From Bradymonadales bacterium (lineage in GTDB: Bacteria > Myxococcota_A > UBA9042 > PWKZ01): 64,000 nt of DNA. Under the pieces are notes generated by a model that searched no databases, had not been told where the DNA came from, and saw only the letters and a program-made list of their open reading frames with translations. Each line of letters opens with the position of its first letter. Within the stretch, counting starts at the first letter, position 1. Shown one piece after another: positions 7,783 through 61,444 of the stretch. The stretch is taken from positions 35,471 to 99,470 of the forward strand of contig PWKZ01000147.1 in the NCBI GenBank assembly GCA_003559575.1. The letters run 5' to 3'. The position numbers and the translations under genes are program-made.

Positions 7783-10700
7783 ATGAACTGGTCTGAACTC
7801 ACTTGGCAAAATGGTCACTTGTGGTGGGTCGTGCCTGTCGGGGTGGGGGTCGTCGCGCTCGGCTTCCTGCTCGTTTTTCTCTGGCGACAGAGGATGCTCG
7901 AACGGATCGCCGACCCGGCCCTCCGCGAACGTTTGGTGGAGACCTTGAGCCGCCCCCGGCAGGTGCTCAAGGCGGTCATCATGACCGTCGCCGTGGCGTT
8001 GCTGCTGCTCGCGGCGCTCCGGCCCCAGTACGGGGTGCGCGAGACCGAGGTGAGAAACGTCGGGATCGACATCGCCGTGTTGCTCGACGCCAGCCAGAGT
8101 ATGCTGGTGCGGGATGTGGTGCCCGACAGGTTCGTGGCCGCCCGGCAGGAGATAAGCCGGGTGCTCGAGGGCTTGAGTGGTGGCCGGGTGGCGCTCATTC
8201 CATTTTATTTCATCCCCTTCGTGCAGTCTCCGCTCACCTCCGACTTTGACGCGTTGCAGGTCTACTTGCGTGATCTGAGGCTCGATGACATCGCCGAACC
8301 CGAGATGCGCGGGACAAGTATCGGCCGCGCGCTGATGGCCGCCGTAGGGTTGTTGGCCCAGGATCGGGAGTTGCTCTCCGAGGCCGGGGCGGGCGTCGTC
8401 CCGGATTTGGACGAGGACCACGACGTGAGCGCGATGGACGGCAGCCGCTACAAGGCGATTCTGCTATTCACCGACGGCGAGGAGCACGAGGATCTCCCCG
8501 AGGAAATCTACACGGTGGCGGAGTCCGCCGGTATCCGGATCTTCTCCGTCGGGGTCGGGACACGGGCCGGTCACGCGGTGCCCATCGTGCAAGAGGACGG
8601 CGAGGTGACCGGAGTGCTCAAAGGCGAGGATGGCCACCCAATCTTCTCGGCGCTCAACGAGGAGCTGCTGGGCGGGCTGGCCGAGCGCACCGGCGGCGCC
8701 TATTTCAACTTCTCGGGCCGCTCGGTGGCCGACGAGCTTTTGGCCGAGATCGAGAAGCTCGAAAAGAAGGAGTTCGAAGCTCAGACCCGCGATCTTGGAG
8801 AGGATCGCTACCAATTCCTGTTGCTTCCGGCGCTGATACTGCTGATGGTCGAGGGGCTCATGTCTGATCGCTTGCGGCGCAGGAGAGCCACCGATGACAA
8901 GCGGCGGCAGGGAAAGCGCGGGAGACGCCGCCTTGGCGCGCTGGTTATGGCGCTGGTGCTGCTTGCCGGTCCCCAGGCCGTCGCCTGGGATCTCTTCAAG
9001 ACCCGGCAGAGCGACGTCGAGGCCGGGAACGCTCTGCTTCGGTCCGGGAGCCCACGCGAGGCGCTCGAGGCTTATGAGCGGGCGCGGGAGGTCTTGCCCG
9101 AACAGGCCGAGTTGCACTACGCCATTGGGGTCGCGCGGCACGAACTCGGAGAATATGACATGGCGGTGCGGGCACTTGAGCGGGCGCTCGAGCGGCTCCC
9201 GGATCTCGGTGTCGCCGAGGAGACGCGCGAGCTAAGGTTCGCCGTGCTGTTTGCCCTCGGGACGACCTATGCCGCATGGGGCGAACGAGCCGAGGCGCGG
9301 GCTCTAGGGCGGGCTGCCCCCGAAGAAGAGGAGGGACCGGAGCCGCGGCAGGACGCCCGGACCAAGGCCATCGAGCGGTTCGAGCGAGCGGTTCATTTCC
9401 TCGAGCGCGCCCTGAGATTCGAGCCGGGTCACGAGGGGGCGCTCCTCAACCTCGAGCTTGCCCTGCTGCGGGTGGATCCGCCATGTCATCTTCGCAACGA
9501 TGAATACGCCCCCAACGACACGTTCGACTCCGCGGCGGCGCTCGAGGTGGAAGATCTGCAAGAGGAGCAAATGTTTCCGCTCGTGCTGTGTCCCGGGGAG
9601 GACGACTGGTTCACGTTCGAGACCGAGCCCGGGGACCGGATTTTCGCCTCCGTCAAGACCGATAACCGCGCCGCCGAGCTCCGCGTCGCGCTCTATGCGC
9701 CGGACGGCGTCAGGGTGCGCCCTCCTGCCGGCAGTGAGAGAACGATCTCGGAGCTGAGCTATCAGGAGGGGGCGCTCGCGGGGCCGGTGAGGCTGCACGT
9801 CTTTGATCCGACCGAGGAGGAGAGCGACTATCGCTTGAAACTCCGAGTCCTGCCGGCCTGCGAGCGGCTGGACGATTCGTTCGAGCCCAACGACAGCTTC
9901 GAGGAGGCGCGGCTGGTGACCGACGAAGATCGGGAGAGGCTCGCGGCGCTCAGGTTGTGCCCCGGGAACGACGACTGGTTCAAGATCGATGTGCCCGACG
10001 AGTGGAGCTTGATGGTCATCGGTGAGTTCGACATCAAGCAGGGCCTCCCCGAGCTTGCGATCTTCGACGAGCAGCAAAATGAACTCATGCGGCGCTCGTT
10101 TTCGAGTGAGGAAGCGCAGGTTGATGACAGCGCGCCTTTGATGTTGAGCTTGCTCGAACCTCCTCCCGGTCGCTACCGCTTGAAGGTGACCGGCACCCTG
10201 GACGTCGAGGCGGCCTATGGGTTGACTCTCCAGGTGGTCCCCCCTTGTCCGGAGGGGGACGATCACATGGAGCCCAACGACGAGTTCGGGGAGGCCAAGC
10301 CGTTTCCCGAGGGGGAGCCGATGTTGCTCCGCCGGTGCCCCGACAACGACGACTGGTTCGAGGTGATGGCGAGCGGCGACGAGCGACGCGTGGTGACCGC
10401 CCTGTTCGATCACGAGAGCGGCGATTTGGCGCTCGAGCTCTACGATTCCAAGCAGCAACTCGTGGGCGAGAGCGATCAGAGCAGCGCTCAAATGGGCGGT
10501 GAGGCGCTCGTGTTACCCGAGGTGCCCGAGGAGGATGAGGTGCCGTATTATGTGCGAGTCACCTCGCACGTGAACGAGAGCAACTTCTATCTGCTCGAAT
10601 TGCGCGCTCCGGACGCCGATCCGGACGCGCCTGATGACGAGCGGGACGAACAAGACGAACAGGACGAGCGGGACGAACAGGACCGGCAAGACGAACGGGA

Positions 10701-10875
10701 CGAGCGGGACGAACAGGACCGGCAGGACGAACGGGACGAGCGGGACGAACAGGACGAGTTGGATGCGATGCGAGAGGAGATGGAGAAGCTCGATCGCAAC
10801 CCACGGAATCTCGAAGCGGAGCGGGCGCGACGCACCTCGCCGCTTGGCAATGCACGCCCGACAAAGCCGTGGTAG
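7783..10875 (+). CDS. batB: BatB-like VWA protein fused to TPR (BatC-like) region, three PPC-like beta-sandwich domains and an acidic (DERDEQ)n repeat tail
   Basis: N-terminal TMs and VWA MIDAS (IAVLLDASQSM, LFTDGEEHED). TPR helices around aa 400-500. Three ~110-aa repeats each starting (Y/F/M)xPND(S/T/E)F and containing CPGxDDWF, as in pre-peptidase C-terminal (PPC) domains. C-terminal DERDEQDEQDERDEQDRQDER... repeats. Confidence 0.75.
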   Translation: MNWSELTWQNGHLWWVVPVGVGVVALGFLLVFLWRQRMLERIADPALRERLVETLSRPRQVLKAVIMTVAVALLLLAALRPQYGVRETEVRNVGIDIAVLLDASQSMLVRDVVPDRFVAARQEISRVLEGLSGGRVALIPFYFIPFVQSPLTSDFDALQVYLRDLRLDDIAEPEMRGTSIGRALMAAVGLLAQDRELLSEAGAGVVPDLDEDHDVSAMDGSRYKAILLFTDGEEHEDLPEEIYTVAESAGIRIFSVGVGTRAGHAVPIVQEDGEVTGVLKGEDGHPIFSALNEELLGGLAERTGGAYFNFSGRSVADELLAEIEKLEKKEFEAQTRDLGEDRYQFLLLPALILLMVEGLMSDRLRRRRATDDKRRQGKRGRRRLGALVMALVLLAGPQAVAWDLFKTRQSDVEAGNALLRSGSPREALEAYERAREVLPEQAELHYAIGVARHELGEYDMAVRALERALERLPDLGVAEETRELRFAVLFALGTTYAAWGERAEARALGRAAPEEEEGPEPRQDARTKAIERFERAVHFLERALRFEPGHEGALLNLELALLRVDPPCHLRNDEYAPNDTFDSAAALEVEDLQEEQMFPLVLCPGEDDWFTFETEPGDRIFASVKTDNRAAELRVALYAPDGVRVRPPAGSERTISELSYQEGALAGPVRLHVFDPTEEESDYRLKLRVLPACERLDDSFEPNDSFEEARLVTDEDRERLAALRLCPGNDDWFKIDVPDEWSLMVIGEFDIKQGLPELAIFDEQQNELMRRSFSSEEAQVDDSAPLMLSLLEPPPGRYRLKVTGTLDVEAAYGLTLQVVPPCPEGDDHMEPNDEFGEAKPFPEGEPMLLRRCPDNDDWFEVMASGDERRVVTALFDHESGDLALELYDSKQQLVGESDQSSAQMGGEALVLPEVPEEDEVPYYVRVTSHVNESNFYLLELRAPDADPDAPDDERDEQDEQDERDEQDRQDERDERDEQDRQDERDERDEQDELDAMREEMEKLDRNPRNLEAERARRTSPLGNARPTKPW
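10636..10758 (+). repeat. Tandem ~36-bp (GACGAGCGGGACGAACAGGACCGGCAGGACGAACGG-like) coding repeat, about 3.5 units
   Basis: Direct tandem repetition visible in the sequence. It encodes the acidic DERDEQDRQDER tail of the BatB-like protein and also generates spurious minus-strand ORFs (10513..10881, 10559..10891). Confidence 0.8.
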
Positions 10876-13560: not shown

Positions 13561-14469
13561 CTAGGGGGTGAGTGGGACGGAGTCCAGCGTGGGGTGGCGA
13601 AACGAGTAACCAAAGTCGGTGGCGCGTTGAGGCACGACCCGGCGGCTCGCCAAAAGCTCGCCGGCGAAGCCCCCAAGCGCCAGCCGCAATGCCGGCGCGG
13701 GGGTTGGGAGAACAGAAGGGCGCCCTAGCGCCCGCCCTAGCCTGCGGGCAAACTCGCCCTGGCGCACGGAGTTCGGGGCGACCACGTTCATGGGGCCGCT
13801 TAGCTCCGGCGCCTCGAGCGCCAGCGCAATCATGCCCACCACGTCGTCGCGATGGATCCAGGACCACCACTGCCGCCCGCCTCCCAACGGTCCTCCCAGC
13901 CCATAACGGAACAAGGGGAGCATGGCCGCCAACGCGCCGCCTTTGGGGTGCAGGACAATCCCCGTGCGCAAAAGGGTCACGCGGACTCCAAGCGCCTCCA
14001 TCGAGGTGGCGGCGGCCTCCCACTCGCGACAGACCTCCGCAAGGAAAGAGTCGTCGGGGGGCGAAGTTTCGTCGAGCAGCTCGTCACCGCGCGATCCGTA
14101 GTAGCCGGTGGCGCTACCGGAGACGAGCACGCTCGGCCTCTCGCTCGCCGGGAGCTCGGCCACAGCCGTCACCAAGCTCTTGGTCCCGACTATCCGACTC
14201 TCCTTGATGCCGCGCCGTTTGGCCGAAGTCCAGCGCCCACGGACGGTCTCTCCGGCCAGGTTGACTATCCCCTCGCACCCGAGCAACGCTTGGCGAGGCG
14301 GCGGTGCGGCGCAGTCGCGCCACGAGTATACGTCGTCGACCCCCGGGAGCTGAGCGCGGGTCTTGCCCGCGTCGCGGCTCAATACGACCACCGAGTGCCC
14401 TCCGGCACACAGTTGCTCCACCAGCGCTCGACCGATGAAACCACTACCGCCCGTCACCATCACACGCAT
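13561..14469 (-). CDS. NAD-dependent epimerase/dehydratase family protein (TIGR01777/YfcH-like, DUF1731 C-terminus)
   Basis: N-terminal Rossmann MRVMVTGGSGFIGRALVEQL. C-terminal region (RRLGRALGRPSVLPTPAPALRLALGGFAGELLASRRVVPQRATDFGYSFRHP) matches the DUF1731 pattern of YfcH-type SDRs. Confidence 0.75.
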   Translation of the reverse strand: MRVMVTGGSGFIGRALVEQLCAGGHSVVVLSRDAGKTRAQLPGVDDVYSWRDCAAPPPRQALLGCEGIVNLAGETVRGRWTSAKRRGIKESRIVGTKSLVTAVAELPASERPSVLVSGSATGYYGSRGDELLDETSPPDDSFLAEVCREWEAAATSMEALGVRVTLLRTGIVLHPKGGALAAMLPLFRYGLGGPLGGGRQWWSWIHRDDVVGMIALALEAPELSGPMNVVAPNSVRQGEFARRLGRALGRPSVLPTPAPALRLALGGFAGELLASRRVVPQRATDFGYSFRHPTLDSVPLTP

Positions 14470-14569: not shown

Positions 14570-15976
14570 CTAGAGTTTCAGGAAACGACCCATCTTCATC
14601 CCGAGCTTCATCATCCCGCGGCGTGTCAGGAGGTGCCGCGCGACATAGCCCAGGCGGCGAGGGTGGCCGTAAAATGCCGCCAGCGCTCCGAGCTGAATCG
14701 CGCGCAGTGTGCCCGCTCCGATGAGACTCGCTCGATCACTGAAGTTGCGCGCGTTGTAATAGTCGATGCCGGTGTTGGCGTCGTTGCAGAGGGCGAAGCG
14801 GTTGTCGGCGCTCATTTGAGTGGCGATGTGTGTTCCGGGGAGGACGGACGTCAGGGAGAACGTCGCCTCCGTCAGATCCAGCCGCGTGGCGAGCTTGACG
14901 GTCGCCAACATCTCTCTGAGATCCTCGGTCGGTGAGCCGAGCATGAAAAACCCCAGCGCATGGGCGCCGCGATGTCGCAGGTGCGCGAGCAGCGACTCGA
15001 GCCGGTCCAGATCGACTCGTTTGTGGAGCACTTCCTCCCGAATTCGACGGCTCCCGGCCTCGATCCCCAGATGGATGCTTCGCATTCCGCTCGCGACCAT
15101 TGCGTCGACGAGCTCATGGTCGAGGCAATCGACACGCGAGTTGCAGCCCCATAGAATCGGCCGCCGCATTTGCAGCAGCGCTTCGCATAGCTCCAAGAGC
15201 CAGCGCCGCCGCGTCGTCAGGGTGTCGTCGTGAAAGAAAATCCCGCGGACACCGTAGCGCTGTTGGAGAGCTTCCACCTCGGCGACGATGCTCGCGGGGC
15301 TGCGGCGTCTTGGGCCGCGCCCGAAGAGCGAGTCCAGTGTCGGTTGGCAGTAGGCACATTGTTCGGCGCAGCCACGGGACGCGACTATATTGGTCCCCAC
15401 GGTGGCGACGTCCAGGGTGTCCAAATAAGGCCAGCGGTGGAGGTAGCGCTCCATTGGGAGGAGATCCCAGGCGGGGAATGGGAGCGCGTCGAGGTCCGGC
15501 GGCCGGTACGGCGCGCACGATCTCTTCGGGGGGCCGCCGGCGCTCTCGCGCCACACGACGTTCGGCACGTCCCCAAAGGGCGCGCGCGCGATGGCGCGGT
15601 CGACCACGTCGGCGATGATGGGCTCGCCCTCCCCAAGGACTATGGCGTCGAAGGCGGGCAGCAGTGTTTCGGCGGCCACCGTGGCGTGGGGGCCTCCGGC
15701 CACCACCGAGGCGCCGCCCTCGCGCGCCGCTTCCGCCACCCGTGACGCGACTAACGGCATCAGCGAGTCCACATAGACTCCGACGACATCGCCGCGGGCG
15801 GCCCGTACGGCTTGAAGCAGCTTCTTTTCACCGCCGAGGAAGGTGCCGTCCACGATCCGGATGTCGAGCGCGGGCCGCGCCTTGCGCAGCGCCGCGGCGA
15901 GGTAGGCGACGCCGAGCGGCGGATCGCCGGTGCGATAGGTTGAGCGGGGGAAAACCAATACGACTCGATGGGCCAT
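14570..15976 (-). CDS. B12-binding domain radical SAM enzyme (class B rSAM)
   Basis: Start MAHRVVLVFP (ATG on minus strand at 15974-15976). The ORF track's 724-aa call includes about 256 codons of non-coding-looking leader. Cobalamin-binding-type N-terminal domain, then CxxxCxxC cluster motif ASRGCAEQCAYC and a TIM-barrel-like core. Confidence 0.8.
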   Translation of the reverse strand: MAHRVVLVFPRSTYRTGDPPLGVAYLAAALRKARPALDIRIVDGTFLGGEKKLLQAVRAARGDVVGVYVDSLMPLVASRVAEAAREGGASVVAGGPHATVAAETLLPAFDAIVLGEGEPIIADVVDRAIARAPFGDVPNVVWRESAGGPPKRSCAPYRPPDLDALPFPAWDLLPMERYLHRWPYLDTLDVATVGTNIVASRGCAEQCAYCQPTLDSLFGRGPRRRSPASIVAEVEALQQRYGVRGIFFHDDTLTTRRRWLLELCEALLQMRRPILWGCNSRVDCLDHELVDAMVASGMRSIHLGIEAGSRRIREEVLHKRVDLDRLESLLAHLRHRGAHALGFFMLGSPTEDLREMLATVKLATRLDLTEATFSLTSVLPGTHIATQMSADNRFALCNDANTGIDYYNARNFSDRASLIGAGTLRAIQLGALAAFYGHPRRLGYVARHLLTRRGMMKLGMKMGRFLKL

Positions 15977-16086
15977 TGAGCCTCTCTGGACGGCGGCCTT
16001 AAGGGGGTACCGCGACCCCGACGTGCGCGCCTGAGCGCGAAGGTAGCAAACGGGCCAAGTGCGCACAATGCCTTGATCATATAATC

Positions 16087-16237
16087 CATAATCGTCGGTT
16101 CGTTCTGAGGAGACCCGCCAAGTGGAGGCGCGTGCATGTGCACGGAAACAAGCCGTTCTCAGGCGCAGTCCAACGCAGAGCCTACGTCGAGCACTAATTA
16201 TTCTGCAGGTGACGCCGCAGATGGGCCGACGATTATG
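16087..16237. repeat. Copy 1 of a ~150-175 nt repeated intergenic element with perfect 12-bp terminal inverted repeats (CATAATCGTCGG...CCGACGATTATG); candidate structured sRNA or MITE
   Basis: Second copy at 61178..61352 in the same orientation. Shared blocks: TTCGTTCTGAGGA, GTGGAGGCGCGTGCATGTGCA(C/A)GGAAACAAG, CTACGTCGAGCACTAATT, GCAGGTGACGCCGCAGATG. The central block is variable. Contains the hairpin CGTGC-ATGT-GCACG. Lies in the divergent promoter region of the two radical SAM genes. Confidence 0.6.
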
Positions 16238-16373
16238 ACCTTGAGCCGCTGGGCGGGGGGGTGGTAGGGTGAAAACGGGTGGTTGCCCCTGGTGTGGTGC
16301 GTTTCGGGCTCGAGCCGCTCTCGTGCCGGGGGAGCGCTTTTTTGCGAGCTTTCCCGGTGGTGGAAGCGCCGTT

Positions 16374-17861
16374 ATGGCTCCAGTCAAAGGCTCCGGTCTT
16401 CGAGTCCTCTTTGTCAACGGACTGCTGGGCGGTGATTTTAGTGCGCTGGACATCGGCGTCACCGTGCTCGCCTCATGGCTGAACCAGAAAACCCGCCATC
16501 GGGCGGCCATCGCCGATCTCGTCTTCCATTCCAGGCATTGGCAGCGGCATCTGCATCGCGAGATTGAACGCAAGCGACCCGACGTGATCGCGCTCTCGTG
16601 CAACACGATGTACATGAAGTACGTCCGGCGTATCGTCGCCGAGGTGCGGCGACGGCATACGCTCCCGATCGTTTTGGGGGGGCACCACGCGAGCATCGAG
16701 CCGGCCGAGGTTTTTGCGCTCCCCGGTGTCGACGCGGTCGTCATCGGCGACGGAGAGCTGCCGCTCCAAGGCTACCTGGATCGGTTGAGTGAAGGCGGCA
16801 ACTTCGAGGGCGTCCCCGGGCTGTGGGTCCGTGAGCGCGGCCCCCTTGGGCGCGAGGTGCGCAATGAAGGCGGCGCCTTCCTCGAGGACATCGATCAGCT
16901 CCCCTATCTCGAGTGGGATCTCTGGGACGACCTCGATCGCTATTTTTATTTTTTGGGGATGATTTACGCGCAGGGCAGCCGCGGGTGCCCCTACCGCTGC
17001 ACGTTCTGCGACGCTCAGGGCTACGCGCGGGCGCTGCGGGGCACCGGCAGCTACTTCCGTCTGCGCGATCCCGAGGCGTTCGTCGCCGAACTCGAGCATT
17101 ACTATCACCGCTATCACCATAGGGGCGCCCGGCTGTTCCAGCTCTTCGATCCCGTCTTCACGATGGACGACGACTGGCTCACTCGTTTCTCCGCCGAGTA
17201 CCGCCGGCGCGGGCTCCATGAGCGGATGCGCTACTCGGCCTTCTCGCGGATCGACCATCTCTCCGAGGAGAAAGTCGCGCTGCTTGCCCGCTCCGGTTGC
17301 GCGCTATTGCGGGTCGGTATCGAGGCGGGCGACGATCACATTCGCATGGAGGTCTACAAAAAGAAGATCGGCAGCGCGACGATTCGGCGGATCTTTGCCG
17401 CTGCCAAACGTCAGGGGCTGGACTTCACAGCGTTTTTTATTTTCGGAGGGCCACAGGAGACGCACACGTCATTCTTCAAGACCACGCGGCTGGCGTGGGA
17501 GCTGGACGCCGCGCGCTCGGGGTTCTTCGTCTACAAGCCGTTCACCGCCGAAGGGCGCGCCCAGATCGAGGCCGCCGGCGGCGGTATCGACTCGGTGCGC
17601 TACGCGGCCGCCGACAATATCGCCTGGGGTGGCGCGACCTCTGGGAAAGGCTGGGGGCCCCGGTCTCTCGAAGCCTGGCAGCTCGCGGCCTACGGGCTGA
17701 CTTTTGGGCGCCGGTGGGTGCGCATGATTCGCCGCCGTGGGCTGCCCGCGTACACGACGGCGCTGGCGCGTTACATGGCGCGCGGCCTCCGGCTGGGCTT
17801 GGACTGGCGCTATATGGCCATGTACTTCCACATCTACGAGGGCGACAACGTCGATCAGTGA
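16374..17861 (+). CDS. B12-binding domain radical SAM enzyme (class B rSAM), paralogue of 14570..15976
   Basis: ATG at 16374 with GGTGGAAG upstream; MAPVKGSGLRVLFVNG begins the B12-binding domain; CxxxCxxC motif GSRGCPYRCTFCD. The ORF track's N-terminal extension from 16269 is probably not translated. Confidence 0.8.
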   Translation: MAPVKGSGLRVLFVNGLLGGDFSALDIGVTVLASWLNQKTRHRAAIADLVFHSRHWQRHLHREIERKRPDVIALSCNTMYMKYVRRIVAEVRRRHTLPIVLGGHHASIEPAEVFALPGVDAVVIGDGELPLQGYLDRLSEGGNFEGVPGLWVRERGPLGREVRNEGGAFLEDIDQLPYLEWDLWDDLDRYFYFLGMIYAQGSRGCPYRCTFCDAQGYARALRGTGSYFRLRDPEAFVAELEHYYHRYHHRGARLFQLFDPVFTMDDDWLTRFSAEYRRRGLHERMRYSAFSRIDHLSEEKVALLARSGCALLRVGIEAGDDHIRMEVYKKKIGSATIRRIFAAAKRQGLDFTAFFIFGGPQETHTSFFKTTRLAWELDAARSGFFVYKPFTAEGRAQIEAAGGGIDSVRYAAADNIAWGGATSGKGWGPRSLEAWQLAAYGLTFGRRWVRMIRRRGLPAYTTALARYMARGLRLGLDWRYMAMYFHIYEGDNVDQ

Positions 17862-19980: not shown

Positions 19981-21384
19981 GTGGAAGCTGTCATGCGCGC
20001 TACGTTTGATGATCAATGGGAAGAGGCGCTCGCCCTGGTTCGCAACAAAATCTCTAACGACCTGCAATATGGCCACTGGATCACCCCCCTCGAGATCTGC
20101 TCGCGAAGCAACGGCACCATCGAGCTTGGAGTCTCCGACGCGCTGTTCGCCGAGTGGTTTGAGAGCGAAGGCTACGCCAAGATCTTGCGCGAGAGTTTGC
20201 ACGAGGTGACGGGCTTGGACTTTGCGTTTGACTACAAAGTGCTCGGCGCGAACGGCGAGACTCACGAGGATTCCAACGAGGGCCAGCTCGAGTTCGAGCT
20301 GGCGCCGACAGGCTCATCCAAGCAGTCCCCGCGCCCATCTCTCGCCTCTCCCGGATCGGGAGTCAGCTTCATCGAAGATTACCGCTTCGAGAGCTTCGTC
20401 AAGGGAGACAGCAACAAGCTGGCTTATGCCGCCAGCGCCGCGGTGGCCGATAAACCGGGCAAGACCTACAACCCGCTGTTCGTCTATGGGGGCGCCGGGC
20501 TTGGCAAGACCCACCTGCTGCACGCCATCGGCAATGAGATGATGGCGCGCAACCCGCAAATGCGGGTCTTGTACGTCACGAGCGAGATCTTTTTCAACGA
20601 TCTGGTCGAGTCGATCCGGCGCAATCGGATGCATGTGTTTCGGGAGCGCTACCGGGACGCCTGCGACGCCCTGCTGATCGATGACGTGCAGTTCTTTGCC
20701 CGCAAGGGGCACACCCAGGACGAGTTCTTTCACACCTTCAACGCGCTGCACGCCGCCAACAAGCAGATCGTGTTCACGAGCGACCGCTTCCCCGAGGAGA
20801 TCGAGAACCTCGAGGAGCGCCTGCGGAGCCGCTTTCAGTGGGGGCTGACCACCGACATCAAGCCGCCGGTCATCGAGACCAGGATCGCCATTTTGGCCAA
20901 GAAGGCCGAGCTGCGCGGACTCGACTTGCCCGATGACGTGGCGTTCTTCATTGCCAGCCGAATTCGCTCCAACGTACGTCGCCTCGAAGGGGCGCTGACC
21001 AGCCTTGCGGCTTATACATCGCTGCACAACGTGCCCATCAACAAAGAGGTCGCGAAGAAGGCGCTCAGGGAGTTCCTCCCCGGCGAAGAACGGCCGGTGA
21101 CGGCCGAGCAGATAATCAAGCTGGTGGCGACCCACTACCACATCAAGCCCCAGGACATGAAAGGCCAAGGGCGACAGAGACAGGTGACCCGTCCGCGCCA
21201 GGTGGCCATGTACCTGACGCGCCGGTTTACGACATTGTCGTTCCCCGAGATTGGAGCGCGCTTCGGCAACCGCGATCACACCACTGTCATGAGCGCTGTG
21301 CGGAAGGTGGAGACCCTGATTGATCAGGAGGACATGGAGACCAAGCGCGCCGTTGAGGTCTTGTCCCGCCAGCTCGAGTCCTGA
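19981..21384 (+). CDS. dnaA: Chromosomal replication initiator protein DnaA
   Basis: GTG at 19981 (alternative ATG at 19993). AAA+ Walker A GGAGLGKTHLLHAIGN, Walker B LLIDDVQF, sensor FTSDRFPEEI, and C-terminal DNA-binding helix-turn-helix (RQVAMYLTRRFTTLSFPEIGARFGNRDHTTVMSAVRKV). Confidence 0.9.
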   Translation: MEAVMRATFDDQWEEALALVRNKISNDLQYGHWITPLEICSRSNGTIELGVSDALFAEWFESEGYAKILRESLHEVTGLDFAFDYKVLGANGETHEDSNEGQLEFELAPTGSSKQSPRPSLASPGSGVSFIEDYRFESFVKGDSNKLAYAASAAVADKPGKTYNPLFVYGGAGLGKTHLLHAIGNEMMARNPQMRVLYVTSEIFFNDLVESIRRNRMHVFRERYRDACDALLIDDVQFFARKGHTQDEFFHTFNALHAANKQIVFTSDRFPEEIENLEERLRSRFQWGLTTDIKPPVIETRIAILAKKAELRGLDLPDDVAFFIASRIRSNVRRLEGALTSLAAYTSLHNVPINKEVAKKALREFLPGEERPVTAEQIIKLVATHYHIKPQDMKGQGRQRQVTRPRQVAMYLTRRFTTLSFPEIGARFGNRDHTTVMSAVRKVETLIDQEDMETKRAVEVLSRQLES

Positions 21385-21593
21385 GCCCGGCGAGGCCCGC
21401 ACTTTAATTCTCCAGCACACCTAGAGTTGACTTTTTGGGCCAACTAGGCCAGTGAGTCATACGGCCTCCTGCGGGCGGCGGGAGATTCGGGGTTTTTTTT
21501 GCACGACCAACCCCTCGACGCGCCAAGCGACCCCGCCATTATTCGCGGGGAAGCAGGAGAACCGCATTCATCGCGCAACTTTGGAGATAGACT

Positions 21594-21743
21594 GTGAAGC
21601 GCACATATCAACCCAGCAATTTGAAACGACGCAGGACCCATGGCTTTCGCGAGCGGATGAGCACTCGCGGGGGGCGGGCGGTATTAAACGCTCGGCGCCG
21701 CAAGGGACGCAAACAGTTGGCCGTGGGGACGCCCAAGAAGTAG
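21594..21743 (+). CDS. rpmH: 50S ribosomal protein L34
   Basis: Not in the ORF track (49 aa). GTG start; translation [44 protein letters not shown] matches the L34 consensus (MKRTFQPSxLKRxRxHGFRxRM...GRxVLxxRRxKGR). Confidence 0.85.
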
Positions 21744-21746
21744 GTT

Positions 21747-22112
21747 TTGGGGCCCAAAACGGTGACTGATTTCGGATATCCACCGGCGCTTCGTTTGCGC
21801 AAACGGGGCCATTTCCTCAGAACCATGAAGTTCGGGCGGAGGTTTTTTTCGCCGAGCTTTATTCTGTACGCCAATCCGAACTCTGGTCCTCACACCCGGT
21901 TGGGTATCACGGTGACCAGAAAGATCGGCAACGCTGTAACGCGCAACCGCTTCAAACGGCTCGTGCGTGAGGCTTTTCGGCTACACCCGGAGTGGTTCGA
22001 CAGGCCGGTTGATCTGTTGGTGATAGTCAAGCGGGGGCGCTCCCCGGAAGGGCTGGGGCAAGTGGTGCGCGAGCTGCAAGAGGTGCTGGGGCGCTGCTTG
22101 GCTGAACGGTGA
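21747..22112 (+). CDS. rnpA: Ribonuclease P protein component
   Basis: Immediately follows rpmH; basic protein with the RNR-like motif region KIGNAVTRNRFKRLVREAFR; canonical rpmH-rnpA linkage. True start may be slightly downstream. Confidence 0.8.
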   Translation: MGPKTVTDFGYPPALRLRKRGHFLRTMKFGRRFFSPSFILYANPNSGPHTRLGITVTRKIGNAVTRNRFKRLVREAFRLHPEWFDRPVDLLVIVKRGRSPEGLGQVVRELQEVLGRCLAER

Positions 22113-22118
22113 AGTGAT

Positions 22119-22409
22119 ATGCAGTCCGAGTCGCGGGCAGAAAAGTTGTTGGGTGCTCTAGTGGTTTGGCCCCGGTGGCTCACGATCGCGCTCCCGGTCC
22201 TTTTGGTGCTGTTGTATCAGCGTTTGCTGCGCCCGCTACTGCCGGGAGCTTGCCGGTTTTATCCTACGTGTAGTGACTACGCCATCCTCGCCTTGCGCCG
22301 CCACGGCCTCTTGAGAGGCGGGGCGCTCGCAGTTTGGCGCTTGTTGCGCTGCCACCCCTTTCACCCTGGCGGTGTCGATCCAGTGCCGACAGCCGGAGAT
22401 AGACGATGA
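22119..22409 (+). CDS. yidD: Membrane protein insertion efficiency factor YidD
   Basis: Motif [28 protein letters not shown] is the YidD signature (CRFxPTCSxY); canonical position between rnpA and yidC. Confidence 0.8.
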
Positions 22410-24652
22410 CCAGACGGCTGCCGTTGTTCGTTATGCTTGCGGCGGGATTTGCTTTCCTGGTGCTCTTTGCGATCAATGAGTCTTCTCGCCCTGACGAATC
22501 CGACGGCGACCAAGCCCAAGGTGAACGACCGGGGACCATGTCCCCCGGAGAGCGCGACTCCGAGGCCCCTCGCGAAGCCCAAGGCGGCGCCTCCGGGACC
22601 TCCTCACAGCGCCACGCGCTGGAGGAGACCTGGAAGGTCAAGAACCGGATCGACGATGATGACGGCTATCTGGGGGTGCTCTCCAGCATTGGAGCGACCT
22701 TCTCGAGCGTCCAGATGCTCAAGGAGCAATACCGCCAGGCGGCCAACGAGGAGCGGCTGAATCCGCTGCCGGAGGTGTTGCGCGGTCGGATCCCCGAGCG
22801 CTTTTACGAGAACTCGCTGTTGGAGCTCGTCTGGGCGTGGGATCCGGAGAGCTACCCGTTTCGTATTCGTTTTGATGCGCTCCAACACAACGGCGAGGTG
22901 CGCCGCGTCCTGCGAGGGCCGGCCGAGGATGGGCAGATCGATCCCACCGACCGCTCTGTCTTCCGCATCGCCGAGTCGGAGGTTCAATTCACCACCACCT
23001 ACCCCGAAGTGCAGCGGGGCGATCAAATCGAACTGACGGTCACCGGCCGGAGCGGCGAGCCAAGCCTCCACACCATCGAAGAGGTGCGCAAGCGGCGGCT
23101 GGTCGTCTCCCCGAGGTTGCCGGAGCTTGCCGACGATGAGGTGGTGAGTTACCGGGTGCTGGCCGAGGGCCCTTTTCAGACCATCTATCACCGCGACGCA
23201 AGGTACACCCTGGTCTCCCGGGACGAGCAGCGCCTCGTGTTCGTGTGGCCGAACCCCGAGAGCGACACGAGTGACCTGTTCATCGAGCGCGAGCTGCGCC
23301 TGACCGGGCCCTACGACCACGAGCTGGATATCGTGCTTCACAACTTCGGCGACCAGGAGGTGACGGGACGCATCACCATGCTGGTGCGTGGGTTTCAACC
23401 ACCGGTGCGCTCGGGCGGGATCTTTTCGGGGCCGCCACCCGATCAGCGCTCGGCCATGTGTCACGCGGGGGGCAAGGCTCACCGCGCTTCACTCGCGGAC
23501 TTGCTCGCCAAGCCGCGGGATCCCGACTGGAGCCCTTCCGGCGACGTCTCCTGGGTAGGGATCGAGAGCCGCTACTTCTTGCTGGCGGCCGTGCCGCTCA
23601 ATTTGAGTAACAGCCAATGCTTCATGCAGGCGTTTCGGAGCGAACCCCCGGAGGGGGTCGCCACGGCGGGGGTCGGGCGGACCAAGAGTTGGGTCATTCC
23701 GCCGGCCAAGACCACCTGCCTGCCCTCCTGGATGCCGCGCCGTCCCGGCTTCGAGCACTGTGAGACCATGCTGGCGCGGTTGGGTCTCGAGGGCGACACC
23801 ACCAACCGCGTCATCGACGACACCTACGATGAGGTGCGACGGACACTCGACGGCGCCAAGCTCGAGGAGGCGCGCGAGGCGCGCGATGCGCTCATGGGCC
23901 GGCGGGCCACCTTGCATCGTTATCTGCTGTATGCCGGCCCCAAGGATCTGGCCGAACTTCAGGCTCAGGACGCCGGCCTGGAGGACAGCATCGACTTTTG
24001 GGTGGTCGGGATCATCGCCAAACCGATGGTCCACATGCTCAAGATGTTTCACGGCTGGATCCCCAACTGGGGGGTCGCCATTGTCCTGTTGACCCTGCTC
24101 GTCAAAGTGGCGCTGCTTTATTTCACGCACAAGAGCTTCAAGTCGATGCATGCGATGCAGAAGCTCAAGCCCCACATGGACGAGCTGAGGGCCAAGTACA
24201 GCAATGATCGCCAGAAGCTCAACGAAGAGATGATGGCGCTCTACAAGCGGCACAAGGTCAACCCCTTGGGCGGTTGCCTCCCCATGCTGCTTCAAATGCC
24301 GGTGTGGATTGCGCTCTATCGATCAATCTATGCGTCGGTGGAACTTTACCAGGCGCCGTTGTTCGGCTGGATTCAGGACATGTCGGCGCCCGATCCCTAT
24401 TACGTGCTCCCGCTCGTCATGGGGCTCTCGATGTTTTTGCAGCAACGGCTGATGCCGCCGGCGATGGACGCGCAGCAGGCGCGAATCATGATGTACATGA
24501 TGCCCATCATGTTCACCGTTTTCATGCTCTTTTTGCCCGCCGGCCTGGTGCTCTATATTTTCGTCAACACTCTGCTCGGGATGGCTCAACAGTATTATAT
24601 CAAGCGCAAGGGTGCGACCGAGCCGGCCGCAGCAGGAGCGGCGCGAGGGTGA
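22406..24652 (+). CDS. yidC: Membrane protein insertase YidC
   Basis: Overlaps the yidD stop. N-terminal TM, large periplasmic domain, and the conserved C-terminal five-TM core ([28 protein letters not shown]...[14 protein letters not shown]...[20 protein letters not shown]...[21 protein letters not shown]). Confidence 0.85.
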
Positions 24653-24701
24653 TCTCGAGGGGTCGGATGCCGCAGACGCGGCATCTTGAGATCCCCATCA
24701 G

Positions 24702-25460
24702 GTGAACGGTTGCGAGAGTCAACCGGTGGATAAGGGGGATGCAGTGAGCTTCCATCCTACATTTTATGGCCGCAATCTCGATCAAGCGCTGTGGGAGGCG
24801 GCGTCCAAGCTCAATCAGGAGCCGGGCAGCCTCGAGTATCGTGCCACCACAGTAGATGAAGGCTTTGTCATGGTCGAGGTGTTGAACGCGCCGATGATCG
24901 AGGTGGCCCCGGTGATGCCGGTGTTTGCGCCGCAGGGCGGCGAAGCCGCCAAAAAGGCGGCGCCGAAGCGTCGTCCTGCCGGGGAGGTGCCCAAGGTGTC
25001 CGCGGAGCTACCCTATCTCCAAGTTGTCCGGGAGGTGTTGCGCGAGATCCTGGGCCGCCTCGGCTTGGAGGGCTCGTTCGAGGTCACCGAGCGCGACGGC
25101 GATGTGCATGTGCAGCTCGATGAAGCACATGCCGAGGTGCTGCTGGGACAGGATGGCCGGCTGCTCGATTCACTCCGCCACCTCGTCAACCGCATGGTCC
25201 ATCAGCAGAGGCAAGGCGGCGCGGCGATCTTGATGGATGTCCAGGGTCGGCTGGCGGCGCGGGAGACCGCGCTTCACGCCATGGCGCAGAGAGTCGCCGA
25301 TTTTGCGGTGGCGCTCGGTGGTGCCGTGGCCGTCGACACCCTGCCGTCGTCTGACCGCCGCCTCATCCACGGGGCGCTGGCCAACAGACACGATGTCCGC
25401 ACCGAGTCGGTCGGCTCGGGCGCTTACCGCCGCTTCGTCATCCGCTCCGCCGGCCACTAG
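24702..25460 (+). CDS. jag: Jag/KhpB-like RNA-binding protein (Jag_N, KH, R3H)
   Basis: Canonical position after yidC. KH-like segment (PYLQVVREVLREILGRLGLEG) and C-terminal R3H-like (VDTLPSSDRRLIHGALANRHDVRTESVGSGAYRRFVI). Start may be the GTG near 24744. Confidence 0.7.
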   Translation: MNGCESQPVDKGDAVSFHPTFYGRNLDQALWEAASKLNQEPGSLEYRATTVDEGFVMVEVLNAPMIEVAPVMPVFAPQGGEAAKKAAPKRRPAGEVPKVSAELPYLQVVREVLREILGRLGLEGSFEVTERDGDVHVQLDEAHAEVLLGQDGRLLDSLRHLVNRMVHQQRQGGAAILMDVQGRLAARETALHAMAQRVADFAVALGGAVAVDTLPSSDRRLIHGALANRHDVRTESVGSGAYRRFVIRSAGH

Positions 25461-28329: not shown

Positions 28330-30540
28330 TTAGTGCCGAAACAAGAGGATCTGATTGGTGGTGGGATCGGCGAGCGCAAACTGGGGGTGGCGCCCTTCGC
28401 GGAGCGTCAGAGCGACGGACGCCGGCTGGTCGGTCATCGAGTGGTGGATGGTCTGGAGGGTCCACCGCGCTCCGGCCCAGCGCAGGTACAGCAGGCCCTT
28501 GTAGTACGCGTCGCCAGAGTCGCCGAAGTAGGCCAGATGGGCGCGGCCGCCGTCGTCCAGCGCGAAGGAGACAGAGTGTCCTTGGCCGCCTTCAAAGCTC
28601 TTTAGTGGCTCAGAGCGGACCCAGACCTGGCCCTTCCAGGCGTGGAGGACGTGGGCGCGAAAATCTTTCATGAAGACCGCCGCCACATGAGGGTTGCCCT
28701 CATGGCAAAAAGCAAGATCGAGGGCGACCACTTCAATGTTCTCCCCCGCCCCCCAATTGATGACGGGCTCCCGAAGCCAGCCACCGTCGTGGGTTTGGCG
28801 GGCATAGACGAGCCCATTGGCTCGTCCCACCGGGCCGTCGGCGAATACGATGGCGGCGCCTCTCTCCGGGTGAGCGGCGAGTTTGCCATAGCGCGCCTGG
28901 CCGGAAGAGATGGCCTCCGAGCGCCAGATCTCGCCGTCGAGACGGCGGAGCTGGAGCTCGAAAGCCTCATGGTCATAGTGGGTGATGAGCGGGTTGCCGT
29001 CGGCGCCGAAGATCAGTGACGCGTACGCGCCTCGCGTTTCGCCGGTGGTCACTGTCTCGACCGCCCAGGTTGGTGCGTTACGAGAGGCGAACATGAGCGC
29101 TGTTTGCGGTCGTGTTTGGAACGCCAGGTGAGGAGCGCCGCCCGGGGCCAGCGCCAGCGCCGGGAAAGCCGCGTCGGTGTCGTCGTAGACGGTCTCCGCC
29201 GTGTCGCCTTGGGGCCCGCTAGAGGCGTAGCCGATCCCTCCCCCACCGGGATCGCCCACGAGCGTGTAGGCCAGGTGCAGCGTGCCATCATCACCCGGCT
29301 TCATCGCCAGGAATCGACCGTCGGCGCCGTCGTCGAGTGTCGTCTGGCGCCAAGTGCAGCATCCCGACTCGCAAGGGTATTGGCCGCGCTCACATTCGTC
29401 GCAGTCGTTGTCGAGCTCGGCAAGGCAGCCGGTGGGGCAGCAGCCGTCGTCGTCGATGCACGCGGTGACGGGCTCAAAGTGGCAGACCACGTCGCAGGTC
29501 TCGGGGCTGCCGGTCATGGTGCCGATGGTACAGGGGTCGCCGTCGTCGCAGTCGGTGGGGCAGTCGCCGTCGCAGGTCTCGCCAGGCTCGATGACACCGT
29601 TGCCGCAGACCGGCTCGCAGTCGGAGTCGGTGTTGGCGTTGCAGCCCGGTGGGCAGCAGCCGTCGTCGTCACGGCAGTAGGTGATCACGTTCTTGAGACA
29701 CTGGGCCGAGCAGTTGTCCGGGCTGCCGATGCGATAGTTGAAGGTGCAGGGGTCGCCGTCGTCGCAGTCGGTGGGACAGTCGCCGTCGCACAGCTCGCCG
29801 GGATCGAGCACGCCGTCGCCGCAGGTGGGCGAGCAGTCGTCGTCGTTGTTGGGGTTACAGCCCGGCGGGCAGCAGCCGTCGCCGAACCAGCATGTCCGAA
29901 TCTCAACGAACAAACACTGGGCGCTGCAGTTGTCGGGACAGCCCACCAAGATGCCGCGAGTGCAGGGGTTGCCGTCGTCGCATTCGGTTGGGCAATCTCC
30001 GTCGCAGACCTCGCCCGGATCGACTATTCCGTCGCCACAGGTGGGCGAGCAGTCGGAGTCGGTCTCCGGGGTACAGCCCGGCGGGCAGCAGCCGTCGCCG
30101 TCGATGCACTCGGTGATCGGGTGGGAGACGCATTTGGCGGTGCAGATCGAGGCGTCCCCCTCGAGCACCACCTCGGTACACAGCAGGCCATCGTCGTGGC
30201 ATTCAGTGGGGCAGTCGCCGTCGCAGGTCTCGCCCCAGTCGATGACTCCGTTGCCGCAGAGCACCCCTTCGCAACCTTCGTCGGTGATCCCGCTGCAGTT
30301 GTCGTCGAGGCCGGTGCCGCAGATCTCTTCCGGCTCGGGGCCGCAGAAGCCACAGGCGTTCAGTTGAGTGTAATCGGTCGCGCACGCCGAGACGACGCAG
30401 ATCTCGCACGGCCCGCAGTCGTCATCGGTGCGACAGCCTTCGAACTCCTCTTCCGGATCGCAGGCCGCGAGGTGCGCCGGAAGAGCCAGAAGCATCGCCC
30501 AAAGAAATATCCGCTTACTCGGAGAGTGACCGGGCCGCAT
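28330..30540 (-). CDS. Secreted (lipo)protein with 4 tandem 'Myxococcus cysteine-rich repeats' plus C-terminal beta-propeller-like domain
   Basis: Start MRPGHSPSKRIFLWAMLLALPAHLAAC (ATG on minus strand at 30540). Four ~72-aa repeats CG(D/N)GV(I/L)(D/E)PGE(V/T/L)CDGDCPT(E/D)C(D/H)DG(D/N)PCT...DGCCPPGC... correspond to TIGR02232-type repeats. The C-terminal ~330 aa show recurring xHLAYxx/AIVFADG beta-strand motifs. Confidence 0.7.
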   Translation of the reverse strand: MRPGHSPSKRIFLWAMLLALPAHLAACDPEEEFEGCRTDDDCGPCEICVVSACATDYTQLNACGFCGPEPEEICGTGLDDNCSGITDEGCEGVLCGNGVIDWGETCDGDCPTECHDDGLLCTEVVLEGDASICTAKCVSHPITECIDGDGCCPPGCTPETDSDCSPTCGDGIVDPGEVCDGDCPTECDDGNPCTRGILVGCPDNCSAQCLFVEIRTCWFGDGCCPPGCNPNNDDDCSPTCGDGVLDPGELCDGDCPTDCDDGDPCTFNYRIGSPDNCSAQCLKNVITYCRDDDGCCPPGCNANTDSDCEPVCGNGVIEPGETCDGDCPTDCDDGDPCTIGTMTGSPETCDVVCHFEPVTACIDDDGCCPTGCLAELDNDCDECERGQYPCESGCCTWRQTTLDDGADGRFLAMKPGDDGTLHLAYTLVGDPGGGGIGYASSGPQGDTAETVYDDTDAAFPALALAPGGAPHLAFQTRPQTALMFASRNAPTWAVETVTTGETRGAYASLIFGADGNPLITHYDHEAFELQLRRLDGEIWRSEAISSGQARYGKLAAHPERGAAIVFADGPVGRANGLVYARQTHDGGWLREPVINWGAGENIEVVALDLAFCHEGNPHVAAVFMKDFRAHVLHAWKGQVWVRSEPLKSFEGGQGHSVSFALDDGGRAHLAYFGDSGDAYYKGLLYLRWAGARWTLQTIHHSMTDQPASVALTLREGRHPQFALADPTTNQILLFRH
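29392..30258 (-). repeat. Four tandem ~216-bp coding repeats (Cys-rich repeat units)
   Basis: Protein-level period of 72-73 aa (CGNGVID at aa 108, CGDGIVD at 181, CGDGVLD at 253, CGNGVIE at 325) is mirrored by DNA-level tandem similarity; the plus-strand 527-aa ORF 29104..30687 is a shadow of this region. Confidence 0.7.
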
Positions 30541-30590
30541 GGTGTTCCTCACGAGAGTGGCAAGAAGGTGCCACCCCAAGTCCTGACAGT

Positions 30591-35445: not shown

Positions 35446-36867
35446 TTGGCGCACCTGTTCGATAAGGCGCTCGGGGGCCGCATCCTGAGACTTGCCGGCC
35501 CCGTTGTCCTCGCCATGCTGAGCCAGACGGCGATAAACCTTCTGGACACCATAATGGTGGGCCGTCTGGATCCAAAGTACAGCACGACCGGCCAGGCGGC
35601 GATCAGCCACAGCCTGATCCTCGTCTGGATGTTCGGTGGCTTCCTGAGCGCGCTGGCGGTGGGTACTCAAGCCATCACGGCGCGTCGTTTCGGCGCCGAT
35701 GACTTCCACAAGAGCGGGCAGGTACTCACCAACTCGCTGTTGCTGGCGGTCGTCGCCGGAGCGCTGTTTTCAGTGCTCGGCTGGTATCTGACACCGCTCA
35801 TTTTTCCGTTTTTCAACCCCAACGCCGACGTCATCCGAGAGGGGATCCCATACAGCCAGGTGCGGATGTTGGGTGTTCTGTCGATGGTCGCCACGGTGAG
35901 TTTCAAGGCGTTTTACGACGGTGTCGGGCGGACCCGGGTGCATATGGGCGCGGCGCTCGTCATGAACGTCCTCAACTTAGTGCTCAATTGGCTCTTGATC
36001 TTCGGCAACCTGGGGCTCCCCAAGCTCAACGTCCTTGGGGCGGGCATCGGCTCGGCCATCTCGAGCTATATCGGGTTGCTGCTGATGTTCGTGTGGACTT
36101 TGCGCGCGGCTGATCGCAAGGGCTACCGCTTCTATCGCCCGAGAAACCTGAACCCCCGCGTCATGTGGGAGATAACCCGTCTCTCGGTCCCCTCGGGGCT
36201 GGCGACCGTCTTCGTCATGAGCGGCTTCGCGCTCTTCTTGAAGATCGTCGCCGACCTGGATGTGCTTGAGTCCGCGCGGATCGCGAGTGACCTCGGCCGC
36301 GTCACAGCGGACGGGGTGGCGCGCCCGGCCATTTACACGGCGGCCACCAAACTCGTGATAGACATCTTGAGCATCTCGTTCATGAGCAGCCTGGCCTTCG
36401 GCACGGCCACCGCGACCCTGGTCAGCCAGAGCCTTGGGGCCAAACGTCCTGAGCTGGCGGCGCGTTTCGGCTGGGAGTCGGTCAAGCTCGGGATGGGAAT
36501 CATGGCGGTGCTTGGCGGGATCTCGCTCCTGTTCCCCGATCTCGTGCTGGCCCTCTTCTCGCGCGACCCGGCGGTCATCGAGGCCGCCCGCGGCCCGCTG
36601 CGCCTGATGGCGGTGAGCAAGTGCCTGATCGCCGCGGGGCTCATTCTGGCGCAGGCGTTGTTCGGCGCGGGCAACACCAAGTTCGTGATGTACGTGGAGC
36701 TTATCCTGCACTTCACTTGCCTCGTGCCGTTGGCCTGGGTGCTGGGAGTGATTCTGGAAGGCGGCCTGTTCGGAGTGTGGCTGGCGGCGTTCATCTATAT
36801 TTTCTTGATGGCCGTACTCATGGCCTGGAAGTTCCACGAAGGCAAGTGGAAGCAAATCAAGCTCTAG
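35446..36867 (+). CDS. MATE family efflux transporter
   Basis: 12 predicted TMs; N-terminal ILRLAGPVVLAMLSQTAINLLDTIMVGRL is typical of the MATE/NorM family; 473 aa. Confidence 0.8.
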   Translation: MAHLFDKALGGRILRLAGPVVLAMLSQTAINLLDTIMVGRLDPKYSTTGQAAISHSLILVWMFGGFLSALAVGTQAITARRFGADDFHKSGQVLTNSLLLAVVAGALFSVLGWYLTPLIFPFFNPNADVIREGIPYSQVRMLGVLSMVATVSFKAFYDGVGRTRVHMGAALVMNVLNLVLNWLLIFGNLGLPKLNVLGAGIGSAISSYIGLLLMFVWTLRAADRKGYRFYRPRNLNPRVMWEITRLSVPSGLATVFVMSGFALFLKIVADLDVLESARIASDLGRVTADGVARPAIYTAATKLVIDILSISFMSSLAFGTATATLVSQSLGAKRPELAARFGWESVKLGMGIMAVLGGISLLFPDLVLALFSRDPAVIEAARGPLRLMAVSKCLIAAGLILAQALFGAGNTKFVMYVELILHFTCLVPLAWVLGVILEGGLFGVWLAAFIYIFLMAVLMAWKFHEGKWKQIKL

Positions 36868-37062
36868 GGCGGAGGCCAACGCAGCCCCTATGGGGAACTA
36901 CCACCTAGTTCGAGCATCCAATTCAAGATGTTGCAGGCAAGACGCACCTCGACTTCTTGTGCGTCCGGCTCGCAACGGCCTTGGTCCCACCGGAACTCAG
37001 AGCCTCTTATGCGGCCAGGGGTCATTCGTGTGATCGAGGTGGCCCAAGGACACGATCAAGGT

Positions 37063-48010: not shown

Positions 48011-48016
48011 TTGCGC

Positions 48017-49858: not shown

Positions 49859-49859
49859 A

Positions 49860-50516: not shown

Positions 50517-50519
50517 CGC

Positions 50520-54393: not shown

Positions 54394-54406
54394 CCTGCTC
54401 CCCGTC

Positions 54407-55027: not shown

Positions 55028-55256
55028 GTTCACCTTCAGGTCCAAGCTCGCGGTCACCGCCGAACGCAGTCGCCTCATAACGCGCCAAACCTCGGGCGCG
55101 GCCCCTCAATAGGGTGAGCGTCCGCTCCGAGAAGGGGCGACCATAACCGAACCTTTTTGCTCAGGCAAGCCCTTTTGACAGTTTTTATGTCGATTTTTAT
55201 GCGGCGCGTCATTAGACGACTGGGAGTTGGTGTCGTGAAGCGGATCTTAGAACCCG

Positions 55257-61177: not shown

Positions 61178-61352
61178 CCATAATCGTCGGTTCGTTCTGA
61201 GGAACGAGCGTGTGGAGGCGCGTGCATGTGCAAGGAAACAAGACGAATTAGGCGGAGGCGTAGCAGCGCTACGTCGAGCACTAATTCGGTGCAGGTGACG
61301 CCGCAGATGTGCGCGGATCCGCGCGCGAATCCCAGGATGGGCCGACGATTAT
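61178..61352. repeat. Copy 2 of the terminal-inverted-repeat element (see 16087..16237), here upstream of glgB
   Basis: Same 12-bp TIRs (CATAATCGTCGG / CCGACGATTATG) and shared internal blocks. Relative to copy 1 it carries a 29-nt insertion containing the palindrome GCGCGGATCCGCGC and a divergent central segment. Confidence 0.6.
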
Positions 61353-61444
61353 GGACGTTGACAATGTTGGCGTGGGGCTTGTAGACCGAGAACTACTTGG
61401 GATCGAGTCGCCGAATCCCGTTCGTGGAGGGGCCGGGGGTGCGG

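Follow-up and report, generated by a model that had tools for sequence, protein, structure and literature searches.

A probable new MITE family dispersed in soda-lake Myxococcota and present in two intact copies in a 64-kb genomic window

[quoted passage not shown] We call the family a MITE on the basis of its dispersal, its defined ends, its target-site duplications (TSDs), its decay products, its lack of coding capacity and the absence of a fixed association with any gene. A first-pass annotation of the window had entertained a MITE alongside other readings, and this suggestion is now backed by at least 17 sites, by TSDs, by fragments and by a nested copy. The element is an ordinary kind of genome parasite, and no dedicated sensor or regulatory RNA. 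In the mechanism that we propose, a transposase encoded elsewhere in the genome would bind both CC(A/C)TAAT-type ends and would move or copy the element, with insertion at staggered cuts leaving duplications of 5–7 bp. The element has multiplied into at least 17 sites and diversified into sub-variants, and copies have decayed by internal deletion (copy A), by truncation (the solo ends) and by erosion (a copy at 36.8 kb). Any effects on the radical SAM genes and glgB that adjoin copies A and B would be a by-product of insertion, for example through a stable hairpin in read-through transcripts.

The element accounts for assembly breaks at particular intergenic sites in soda-lake Myxococcota, and it provides a lineage-specific marker, with a covariance model ready for annotating these MAGs. 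It also calls for caution, in that neither the radical SAM spacer nor the glgB leader should be taken as regulatory RNA. Its evolutionary interest is modest and lies in subfamilies that have a near-identical centre with different complementary arms, and in variable duplications found at some copies only.

Ends and internal structure of copies A and B

The 12-mer CATAATCGTCGG was found at four sites in the window, 16087 (+), 16237 (−), 61179 (+) and 61353 (−), compared with 0.22 expected, and none of 100 shuffles gave four. The first-pass annotation had placed copy A at 16087-16237 with 12-bp terminal inverted repeats (TIRs), and these coordinates are exact, with CATAATCGTCGG at both ends; the TIR is 13 bp once the preceding C is counted in (Table 1). 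The second copy that it gave as 61178..61352 is present, but its coordinates were off by one. Blocks that had been described as common to the two copies proved to be long and fully identical, both in a pairwise alignment and in a repeat-family search. Copy A lies in the 398-nt spacer of divergent genes that start at 15976 (−) and 16374 (+), and copy B lies 29 nt past the stop of a 908-aa gene and 84 nt before the GTG of the following gene (61439). Pfam agrees with the gene names given in the first pass, identifying both neighbours of copy A as B12-binding radical SAM proteins and the gene after copy B as glgB. The motif CCTTGA recurs 9 nt left of the element and immediately right of it at copy A.

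Table 1. Coordinates of the element copies and their parts in the window, and the target-site duplications observed at other loci
Feature	Position	Strand	Description
Copy A	16086..16238	+	153-bp deletion derivative of type I, qualified as such by alignment; 67 bits with model R1
Copy A left TIR	16086..16098	+	CCATAATCGTCGG
Copy A right TIR	16226..16238	+	CCGACGATTATGA; 12/13, last base A, not G
Third, decayed copy	~36842-36950 (end approximate)	+	Central core only, with a 15-nt insertion
Copy B	61178..61354	+	Full-length type I, 177 bp, near-complete palindrome; 201.5 bits with model R1
Copy B left TIR	61178..61190	+	CCATAATCGTCGG
Copy B right-arm segment	61310..61339	+	30 nt, TGCGCGGATCCGCGCGCGAATCCCAGGATG, GATG repeats at its bounds
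Copy B right TIR	61342..61354	+	CCGACGATTATGG, perfect complement of the left TIR
TSDs			L008 ATCTATA; L013a AAATGG; L011 GGTTG; L018 TGTGT

A third copy, decayed and with no recognizable terminal repeats between 36842 and 36950, was detected by nhmmer (E = 5e-4 with the full model, 1e-3 with the core model), and blastn matched it to the cores of the copies in L015 and L013. A MATE transporter gene (35446-36867; MatE domain) ends inside this copy, sharing its final 8 codons and its stop with it.

Full-length type I copies are 177–181 bp long (153–181 bp when copy A is included), and copy B is 87–97% identical over its full length to seven metagenome copies. The 13-bp TIR, which reads CCATAATCGTCGG at the left end and CCGACGATTATGG at the right, is perfect in most full-length copies, with point changes in copy A, L012a/L025a and L025b, and the flanks of the copies diverge exactly outside it. 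The G+C content of the element is 0.58–0.60, compared with 0.65 for the window. The whole of type I is an imperfect palindrome whose inverted repeats extend imperfectly over most of its length, and copy B was predicted to fold into a single hairpin (−102 kcal/mol, z = −10.3). The predicted fold of copy A is weak (z = −2.8) because a 30-nt deletion removed the partner of its left inner arm. The segment concerned, 61310-61339 in copy B, is retained by every one of the ten other full-length copies; only copy A lacks it, and there the junction is the GATG at 16220-16223, immediately upstream of the right TIR. As judged from the aligned copies, copy A is a derivative formed by a 30-nt deletion between GATG repeats, and copy B is the full-length form. 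The hairpin-shaped indel noted in the first pass is accordingly real, but it is this right-arm piece, deleted in copy A alone. Similarly, the internal hairpin described as CGTGC-ATGT-GCACG is perfect in copy A, but copy B and nearly all others have GCAAG there, which breaks one pair.

Variation within type I was found to be modular, with two left-arm variants and two centre variants that occur in three combinations, each in several copies. The centre variants are AATTAGGCGGAGGCGTAGCAGCGC, as in copy B, and TTCTYAGGCGCAGTCCAACGCAGMGCC, as in copy A, which joins left-arm variant L2 to centre variant C2. The difference in the central segment of the two window copies had been remarked on already, yet each variant recurs in multiple copies elsewhere, and this suggests that copies A and B belong to two amplified sub-lineages. 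The local palindrome GCGCGGATCCGCGC was present in only copy B and L011 among the aligned full-length copies, and also in a solo fragment at L030:13861-13928.

Dispersal, insertion and decay

Searching JGI metagenomes with the exact 21-nt end pattern returned 13 loci, one of which (L016) was a chance match in a low-G+C gene. The other 12 loci come from a single sample of soda-lake sediment; together they contain 13 additional copies, in both orientations and with unrelated flanks. When a degenerate 21-mer was searched against species-representative genomes, three of the matches listed were chance matches in coding DNA (L001-L003) and one was real (L004; PWNW01000029.1, 1-35). The latter is a 5.4-kb soda-lake MAG contig with a different flank, which stops 34 nt into the element. 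It was binned as Spirochaetaceae, but given a correlation of 0.94 between its tetranucleotide profile and that of the window it is probably a mis-binned Myxococcota contig. Every further stretch of the same genomes that was reached through neighbouring proteins gave more copies. The contig L025 (8.6 kb) contributed three, and L030 contributed a solo right-end fragment of 68 nt (13861-13928), ~10 kb beyond glgB. A search for more copies had been proposed in the first pass; with the 13 from metagenomes, the tally reached at least 17 type I sites, each differently flanked, to which two type II copies, one type III copy and one decayed copy are added. No copies were found in viral contigs, searched with three patterns, or in PLSDB plasmids.

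L005 has an identical copy A, and two other contigs, L006 and L007, are broken at its edge or within it; copy B is present at the same locus in L030 and L032. In other assemblies of the organism of the window, contigs begin at or within copies A and B. These breaks are consistent with how short-read assemblers behave at repeats.

We found that TSDs of 5–7 bp abut the TIRs in four of the ten full-length copies (Table 1), with the element ends set at CC...GG, so that this check on the MITE reading, suggested in the first pass, came out in its favour. As a control, mismatched left and right flanks were paired, and none of 110 such pairs reached 5 bp; the longest match was 4 nt, seen once. The length of the duplication is not constant (5, 5, 6 and 7 bp), and no TSD was found at the other six full-length copies. 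At least two of these, copy A and L025b, sit between genes that are adjacent also in relatives, and therefore mis-assembly cannot explain their lack of TSDs. An inversion between two inverted copies around rpsA was considered as a cause of absent TSDs and rejected, as the flanks failed to cross-match on inspection.

Other junctions and orthologous loci also bear on insertion. At L015, a type I copy is nested within another family member, directly after CACTAAT. Distant relatives, with 72–86% protein identity, have no element at the orthologous spacers: the radical SAM spacer is 116 nt in a relative and 398 nt here, and a HIT-TPR spacer is 3 nt in a relative and 274 nt with the element. No precise empty site was recovered among orthologues or other assemblies, the near-identical assemblies either carrying copies A and B or breaking there. 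A type II copy closes a DUF4258-like frame, whose TAA lies within the TIR of the copy itself. This frame, in L013, may be interrupted by the element; L013:560-1700 (−) holds a cluster of small DUF4258-like and DUF2283-like genes of toxin-antitoxin type.

Truncated copies bear on whether the sequence spread by retroposition. Solo left ends were found in L009 (53 nt, between TCTAAT(C) direct repeats) and in L019 (next to GTGT direct repeats), and such left-end truncations beside short direct repeats, together with the variable length of the duplications and the presence of only two intact copies in the window, would suit a retroposed (SINE- or retron-like) sequence or a chance duplication. However, there are at least 17 independent sites, which also disposes of the chance duplication that the first-pass annotation had kept as an alternative; the copies have TIRs, and no reverse transcriptase was found near them. 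The solo right end in L030 shows besides that truncation has no polarity, which argues against target-primed reverse transcription, and retroposition, which the left-end fragments had suggested, was dropped in view of it. We therefore regard this explanation as scarcely credible. Directly after the solo end, L030:13861-13950 contains a 14-nt tandem duplication, ATTATGGCCTTGCA twice, made up of the last 7 nt of the element and 7 nt of flank; L019 shows a similar duplication of flank plus left end.

Subfamilies, arm pairing and known palindromic elements

Type II is represented by two copies (L013:897-1072 and L025:1-143) with the TIR CCCTAATTCCCCA and arms that are ~60–70% like those of type I, and a third arm type was found in L015. 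The central ~85 nt are ~95% identical between subfamilies; the arms, and with them most of the TIR, are different but remain complementary. The predicted fold of type II reaches −93 kcal/mol (z = −6.2), and both strands fold equally well. We aligned nine copies, eight of type I and one of type II, to examine pairing and found that 96% of cells pair. In this alignment 11 pairs are changed on both sides, compared with 1.4 in shuffles and 2–5 in slid controls. Every one of them falls in the two outer helices, and they all trace to the one type II sequence and so to one lineage. The three core helices (3–5) of the same nine sequences show no pair with a change on both sides; these helices never vary. 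The test for covariation put forward in the first pass thus went against a conserved RNA centre, with compensatory changes confined to the inverted-repeat arms. Complementary arms are expected from a transposon with equivalent ends or from arm-to-arm gene conversion, and so they do not establish an RNA function. The strong predicted hairpin may nevertheless make the element a structured non-coding RNA as a secondary property.

A strand-specific RNA structure was also considered from the excess of G-U among arm mismatches, and rejected. In type I, G-U falls on the plus strand in 9 cases versus 4 overall, and in ~8 versus 2 in the arms, which is not significant, and in type II the ratio is reversed (3 versus 8). 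As the two ratios are opposed, there is no family-wide strand signal.

A more distant palindrome was found at L026:18383-18567, and also at L027:16084-16268, in a relative with 73% G+C. It is a near-perfect palindrome of 185 nt (−121 kcal/mol, 29.5 bits) that overlaps the stop codon of a diacylglycerol-kinase-like gene; its centre resembles the core of the element and its ends are unrelated. From this resemblance, it may be a distant family member.

These features raise the question of whether spread depends on structure rather than on the ends. Under such an explanation, a single-stranded DNA or RNA hairpin would be propagated in the way that REPINs are by RAYT, or by IS200/IS605-type HUH enzymes, or else an RNA hairpin module would be kept by the host, for mRNA 3′-end protection or as an RNase III site, with selection on pairing and core. 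The element as a whole is one long hairpin in both copy B and type II, 11 arm pairs have changed on both sides and still pair around a nearly identical centre, and the palindrome of the 73% G+C relative combines a related centre with unrelated ends. Type I arm mismatches are mostly plus-strand G-U, and many copies lie in sense orientation a few nucleotides past stop codons. However, the compensatory changes come from one sequence and are equally expected from transposon ends or gene conversion, and the G-U bias is, as noted, neither significant nor shared by type II. Duplications of 5–7 bp would not be expected from REPIN or IS200/IS605-type movement, the 5′ flank has no conserved target motif, three copies run antisense to the gene closest to them, and the hairpin is not followed by the T-run of an intrinsic terminator. 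Taking both sides together, we consider a structure-dependent palindrome unlikely.

One feature at odds with a MITE is that conservation is higher in the centre than at the ends, opposite to what many MITE families show. Together with the missing TSDs and their varying length, this conserved centre keeps alive a reading in which the hairpin or centre is what is recognized. In its mobile form, which we judge quite unlikely, the hairpin and the ~85-nt centre, and not transposase-binding ends, would drive spread or retention, with duplications of 0–7 bp. Were this true, the centre would serve as a protein-binding module or as a functional RNA, spread about within the genomes of one Myxococcota lineage, and the reading would explain both the subfamilies and a 73% G+C relative that keeps palindrome and centre while swapping most of the arms.

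The MITE reading that we prefer finds parallels in described elements. Prokaryotic MITEs are 50–800 bp in size, with TIRs of at least 10–15 bp, TSDs of 2–10 bp and no transposase; their transcripts form stable hairpins, partial copies without TIRs or direct repeats occur, direct repeats wane over time, and reviews describe them as intergenic and AT-rich (PMC11602168, PMC10969869). The element agrees with this definition in size, TIR, TSD, dispersal and the lack of a conserved ORF, and its G+C is below that of its host. QMITE2 of Coxiella burnetii is ~190 bp long, with TIRs, a central core and variable direct repeats of 7–9 bp, its transcript is predicted to form one very stable long hairpin, and many of its copies are truncated and have lost direct repeats or TIRs (PMC10969869). 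Our element is similar in size, TIRs, core, variable duplications, long hairpin and truncated copies; it differs in having no sequence relationship to QMITE2, a shorter perfect TIR (13 bp) and shorter duplications (5–7 bp), and in its host, a high-G+C Myxococcota lineage rather than an AT-rich intracellular bacterium. [quoted passage not shown] Size range and the occurrence of intergenic and partial copies are shared with Chunjie as it is summarized there.

By analogy, the closest counterparts are QMITE2, Chunjie, and the Correia and ERIC elements, the last two being the subject of reviews (PMC3184786, PMC2229807). Correia elements of Neisseria and ERIC/IRU elements of enterobacteria are intergenic imperfect palindromes of 100–200 bp; besides full-length copies there are variants with internal deletions or insertions. 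They are transcribed together with adjacent genes, and their hairpins can change the fate of mRNA. A TA duplication and an IHF site are characteristic of Correia elements, and ERIC copies are generally without clear target-site duplications. The element described here is likewise an intergenic imperfect palindrome with deletion variants; unlike Correia, it shows, on inspection by eye, no TA specificity and no IHF consensus. REPs and RAYT-mobilized REPINs are also palindromic and intergenic, have compensatory stem changes and often lie just after genes. However, REPs are units of 20–40 nt with a conserved GTAG head and without target-site duplication, whereas our element forms one unit of ~177 bp that has 13-bp TIRs, 5–7-bp duplications and no conserved motif in the 5′ flank. 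Among described elements and Rfam families we found none related to it in sequence, and searching the literature for the TIR string or for myxobacterial MITEs gave no match.

Gene context, coding capacity and surroundings

Beyond the window, copies lie beside rpsA, a HIT gene, dnaN-recF, rpoD, cysE, and genes for a DegT aminotransferase, a PP2C phosphatase, a NarL-type response regulator, an MFS transporter and an amidotransferase, as well as toxin-antitoxin-like genes. In L020, the copy is directly upstream of dnaN-recF. Relative to the nearest gene, ~10 of 13 copies are in sense and ~3 in antisense orientation, a bias that is not significant. The element was found after genes as often as before them, and several of the sense copies lie a few nucleotides past stop codons and not in leaders. 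The best named relatives of RpsA are from Myxococcota, and the closest relative of a radical SAM protein of the window is in a bin named Myxococcota_PWKZ01. On these protein relationships the organisms bearing copies are Myxococcota, in line with the placement assumed in the first pass.

The first-pass annotation had also proposed that the element might act in 5′ untranslated regions as a riboswitch or attenuator. More broadly, control of the radical SAM genes and glgB could lie with small RNA genes of one family or with a cis-regulatory RNA such as a riboswitch, attenuator or leader, since copies A and B are both upstream of a gene in the same sense and fold strongly, and downstream of copy A lies a hairpin resembling a terminator, with a T-run (16316-16345). 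This proposal did not survive comparison of the copies. The unrelated neighbours and the copies past stop codons rule out a riboswitch or a gene-specific attenuator; in addition, some copies are antisense, TSDs and truncated fragments exist, and the conserved centre holds no covarying pair. A promoter scan found no sigma-70-like site in or beside copy A or B. Rfam 15 gave no match in the window at the gathering score and none at E ≤ 1 in six copy-bearing loci, which bears out the earlier statement that no described RNA family was recognized and speaks against a regulatory RNA. We conclude that this explanation is highly improbable. The hairpin of the element itself lacks a following T-run, and the element is therefore not an intrinsic terminator.

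The hairpin downstream of copy A, at 16316-16345 (+), consists of CGCTCTCGTGCCGGGGGAGCG followed by CTTTTTTG; a G-rich stretch (16250-16300) precedes it, and the plus-strand radical SAM gene begins ~30 nt further on, at the ATG (16374). It is outside the repeat, is absent at other copies and had no match in the other loci examined. It may act on the radical SAM gene, as its leader or attenuator, or may terminate a short transcript.

A coding function was considered because of a GGAGG followed after 7 nt by ATG, resembling a ribosome-binding site and start, at 16122-16150 and 61212-61240. The frame runs from copies A and B into the flank, and three 1-nt indels in the centre keep it. However, TAG or TAA breaks this frame in 5 of 10 type I copies, and in-frame stops in half of the copies rule it out. 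A six-frame check found stops in several copies for every frame and none open in all. Pfam identified no transposase in the 64-kb window, and no autonomous element was seen among the loci with the 21-nt end, all real ones continuing as the short element. Neither ARAGORN, run on the window, nor Tandem Repeats Finder, run on 15000-17000, gave anything relevant.

Several other features of the window were observed. The cluster at 19981-25460 comprises dnaA, rnpA, yidC and a jag-like KH/R3H gene, with dnaN not adjacent, and this arrangement suggests that the window spans the likely chromosomal origin region. At 10618-10793 (+), a 9-nt periodic repeat of ~14 units (GACGARCRG...) codes for an acidic low-complexity stretch rich in D/E/Q/R, within a 1030-aa VWA/TPR protein of a MoxR-DUF58-BatA-BatD operon. 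Four tandem 216-nt repeats, 73–88% identical, lie at 29383-30260 in a 749-aa cysteine-rich ORF (28330-30579 (−)) for which Pfam had no match. At 47567-55078 (−) is a V/A-type ATPase operon encoding subunits K/c, I, D, B and A, a DUF2764 protein and an E-like protein.
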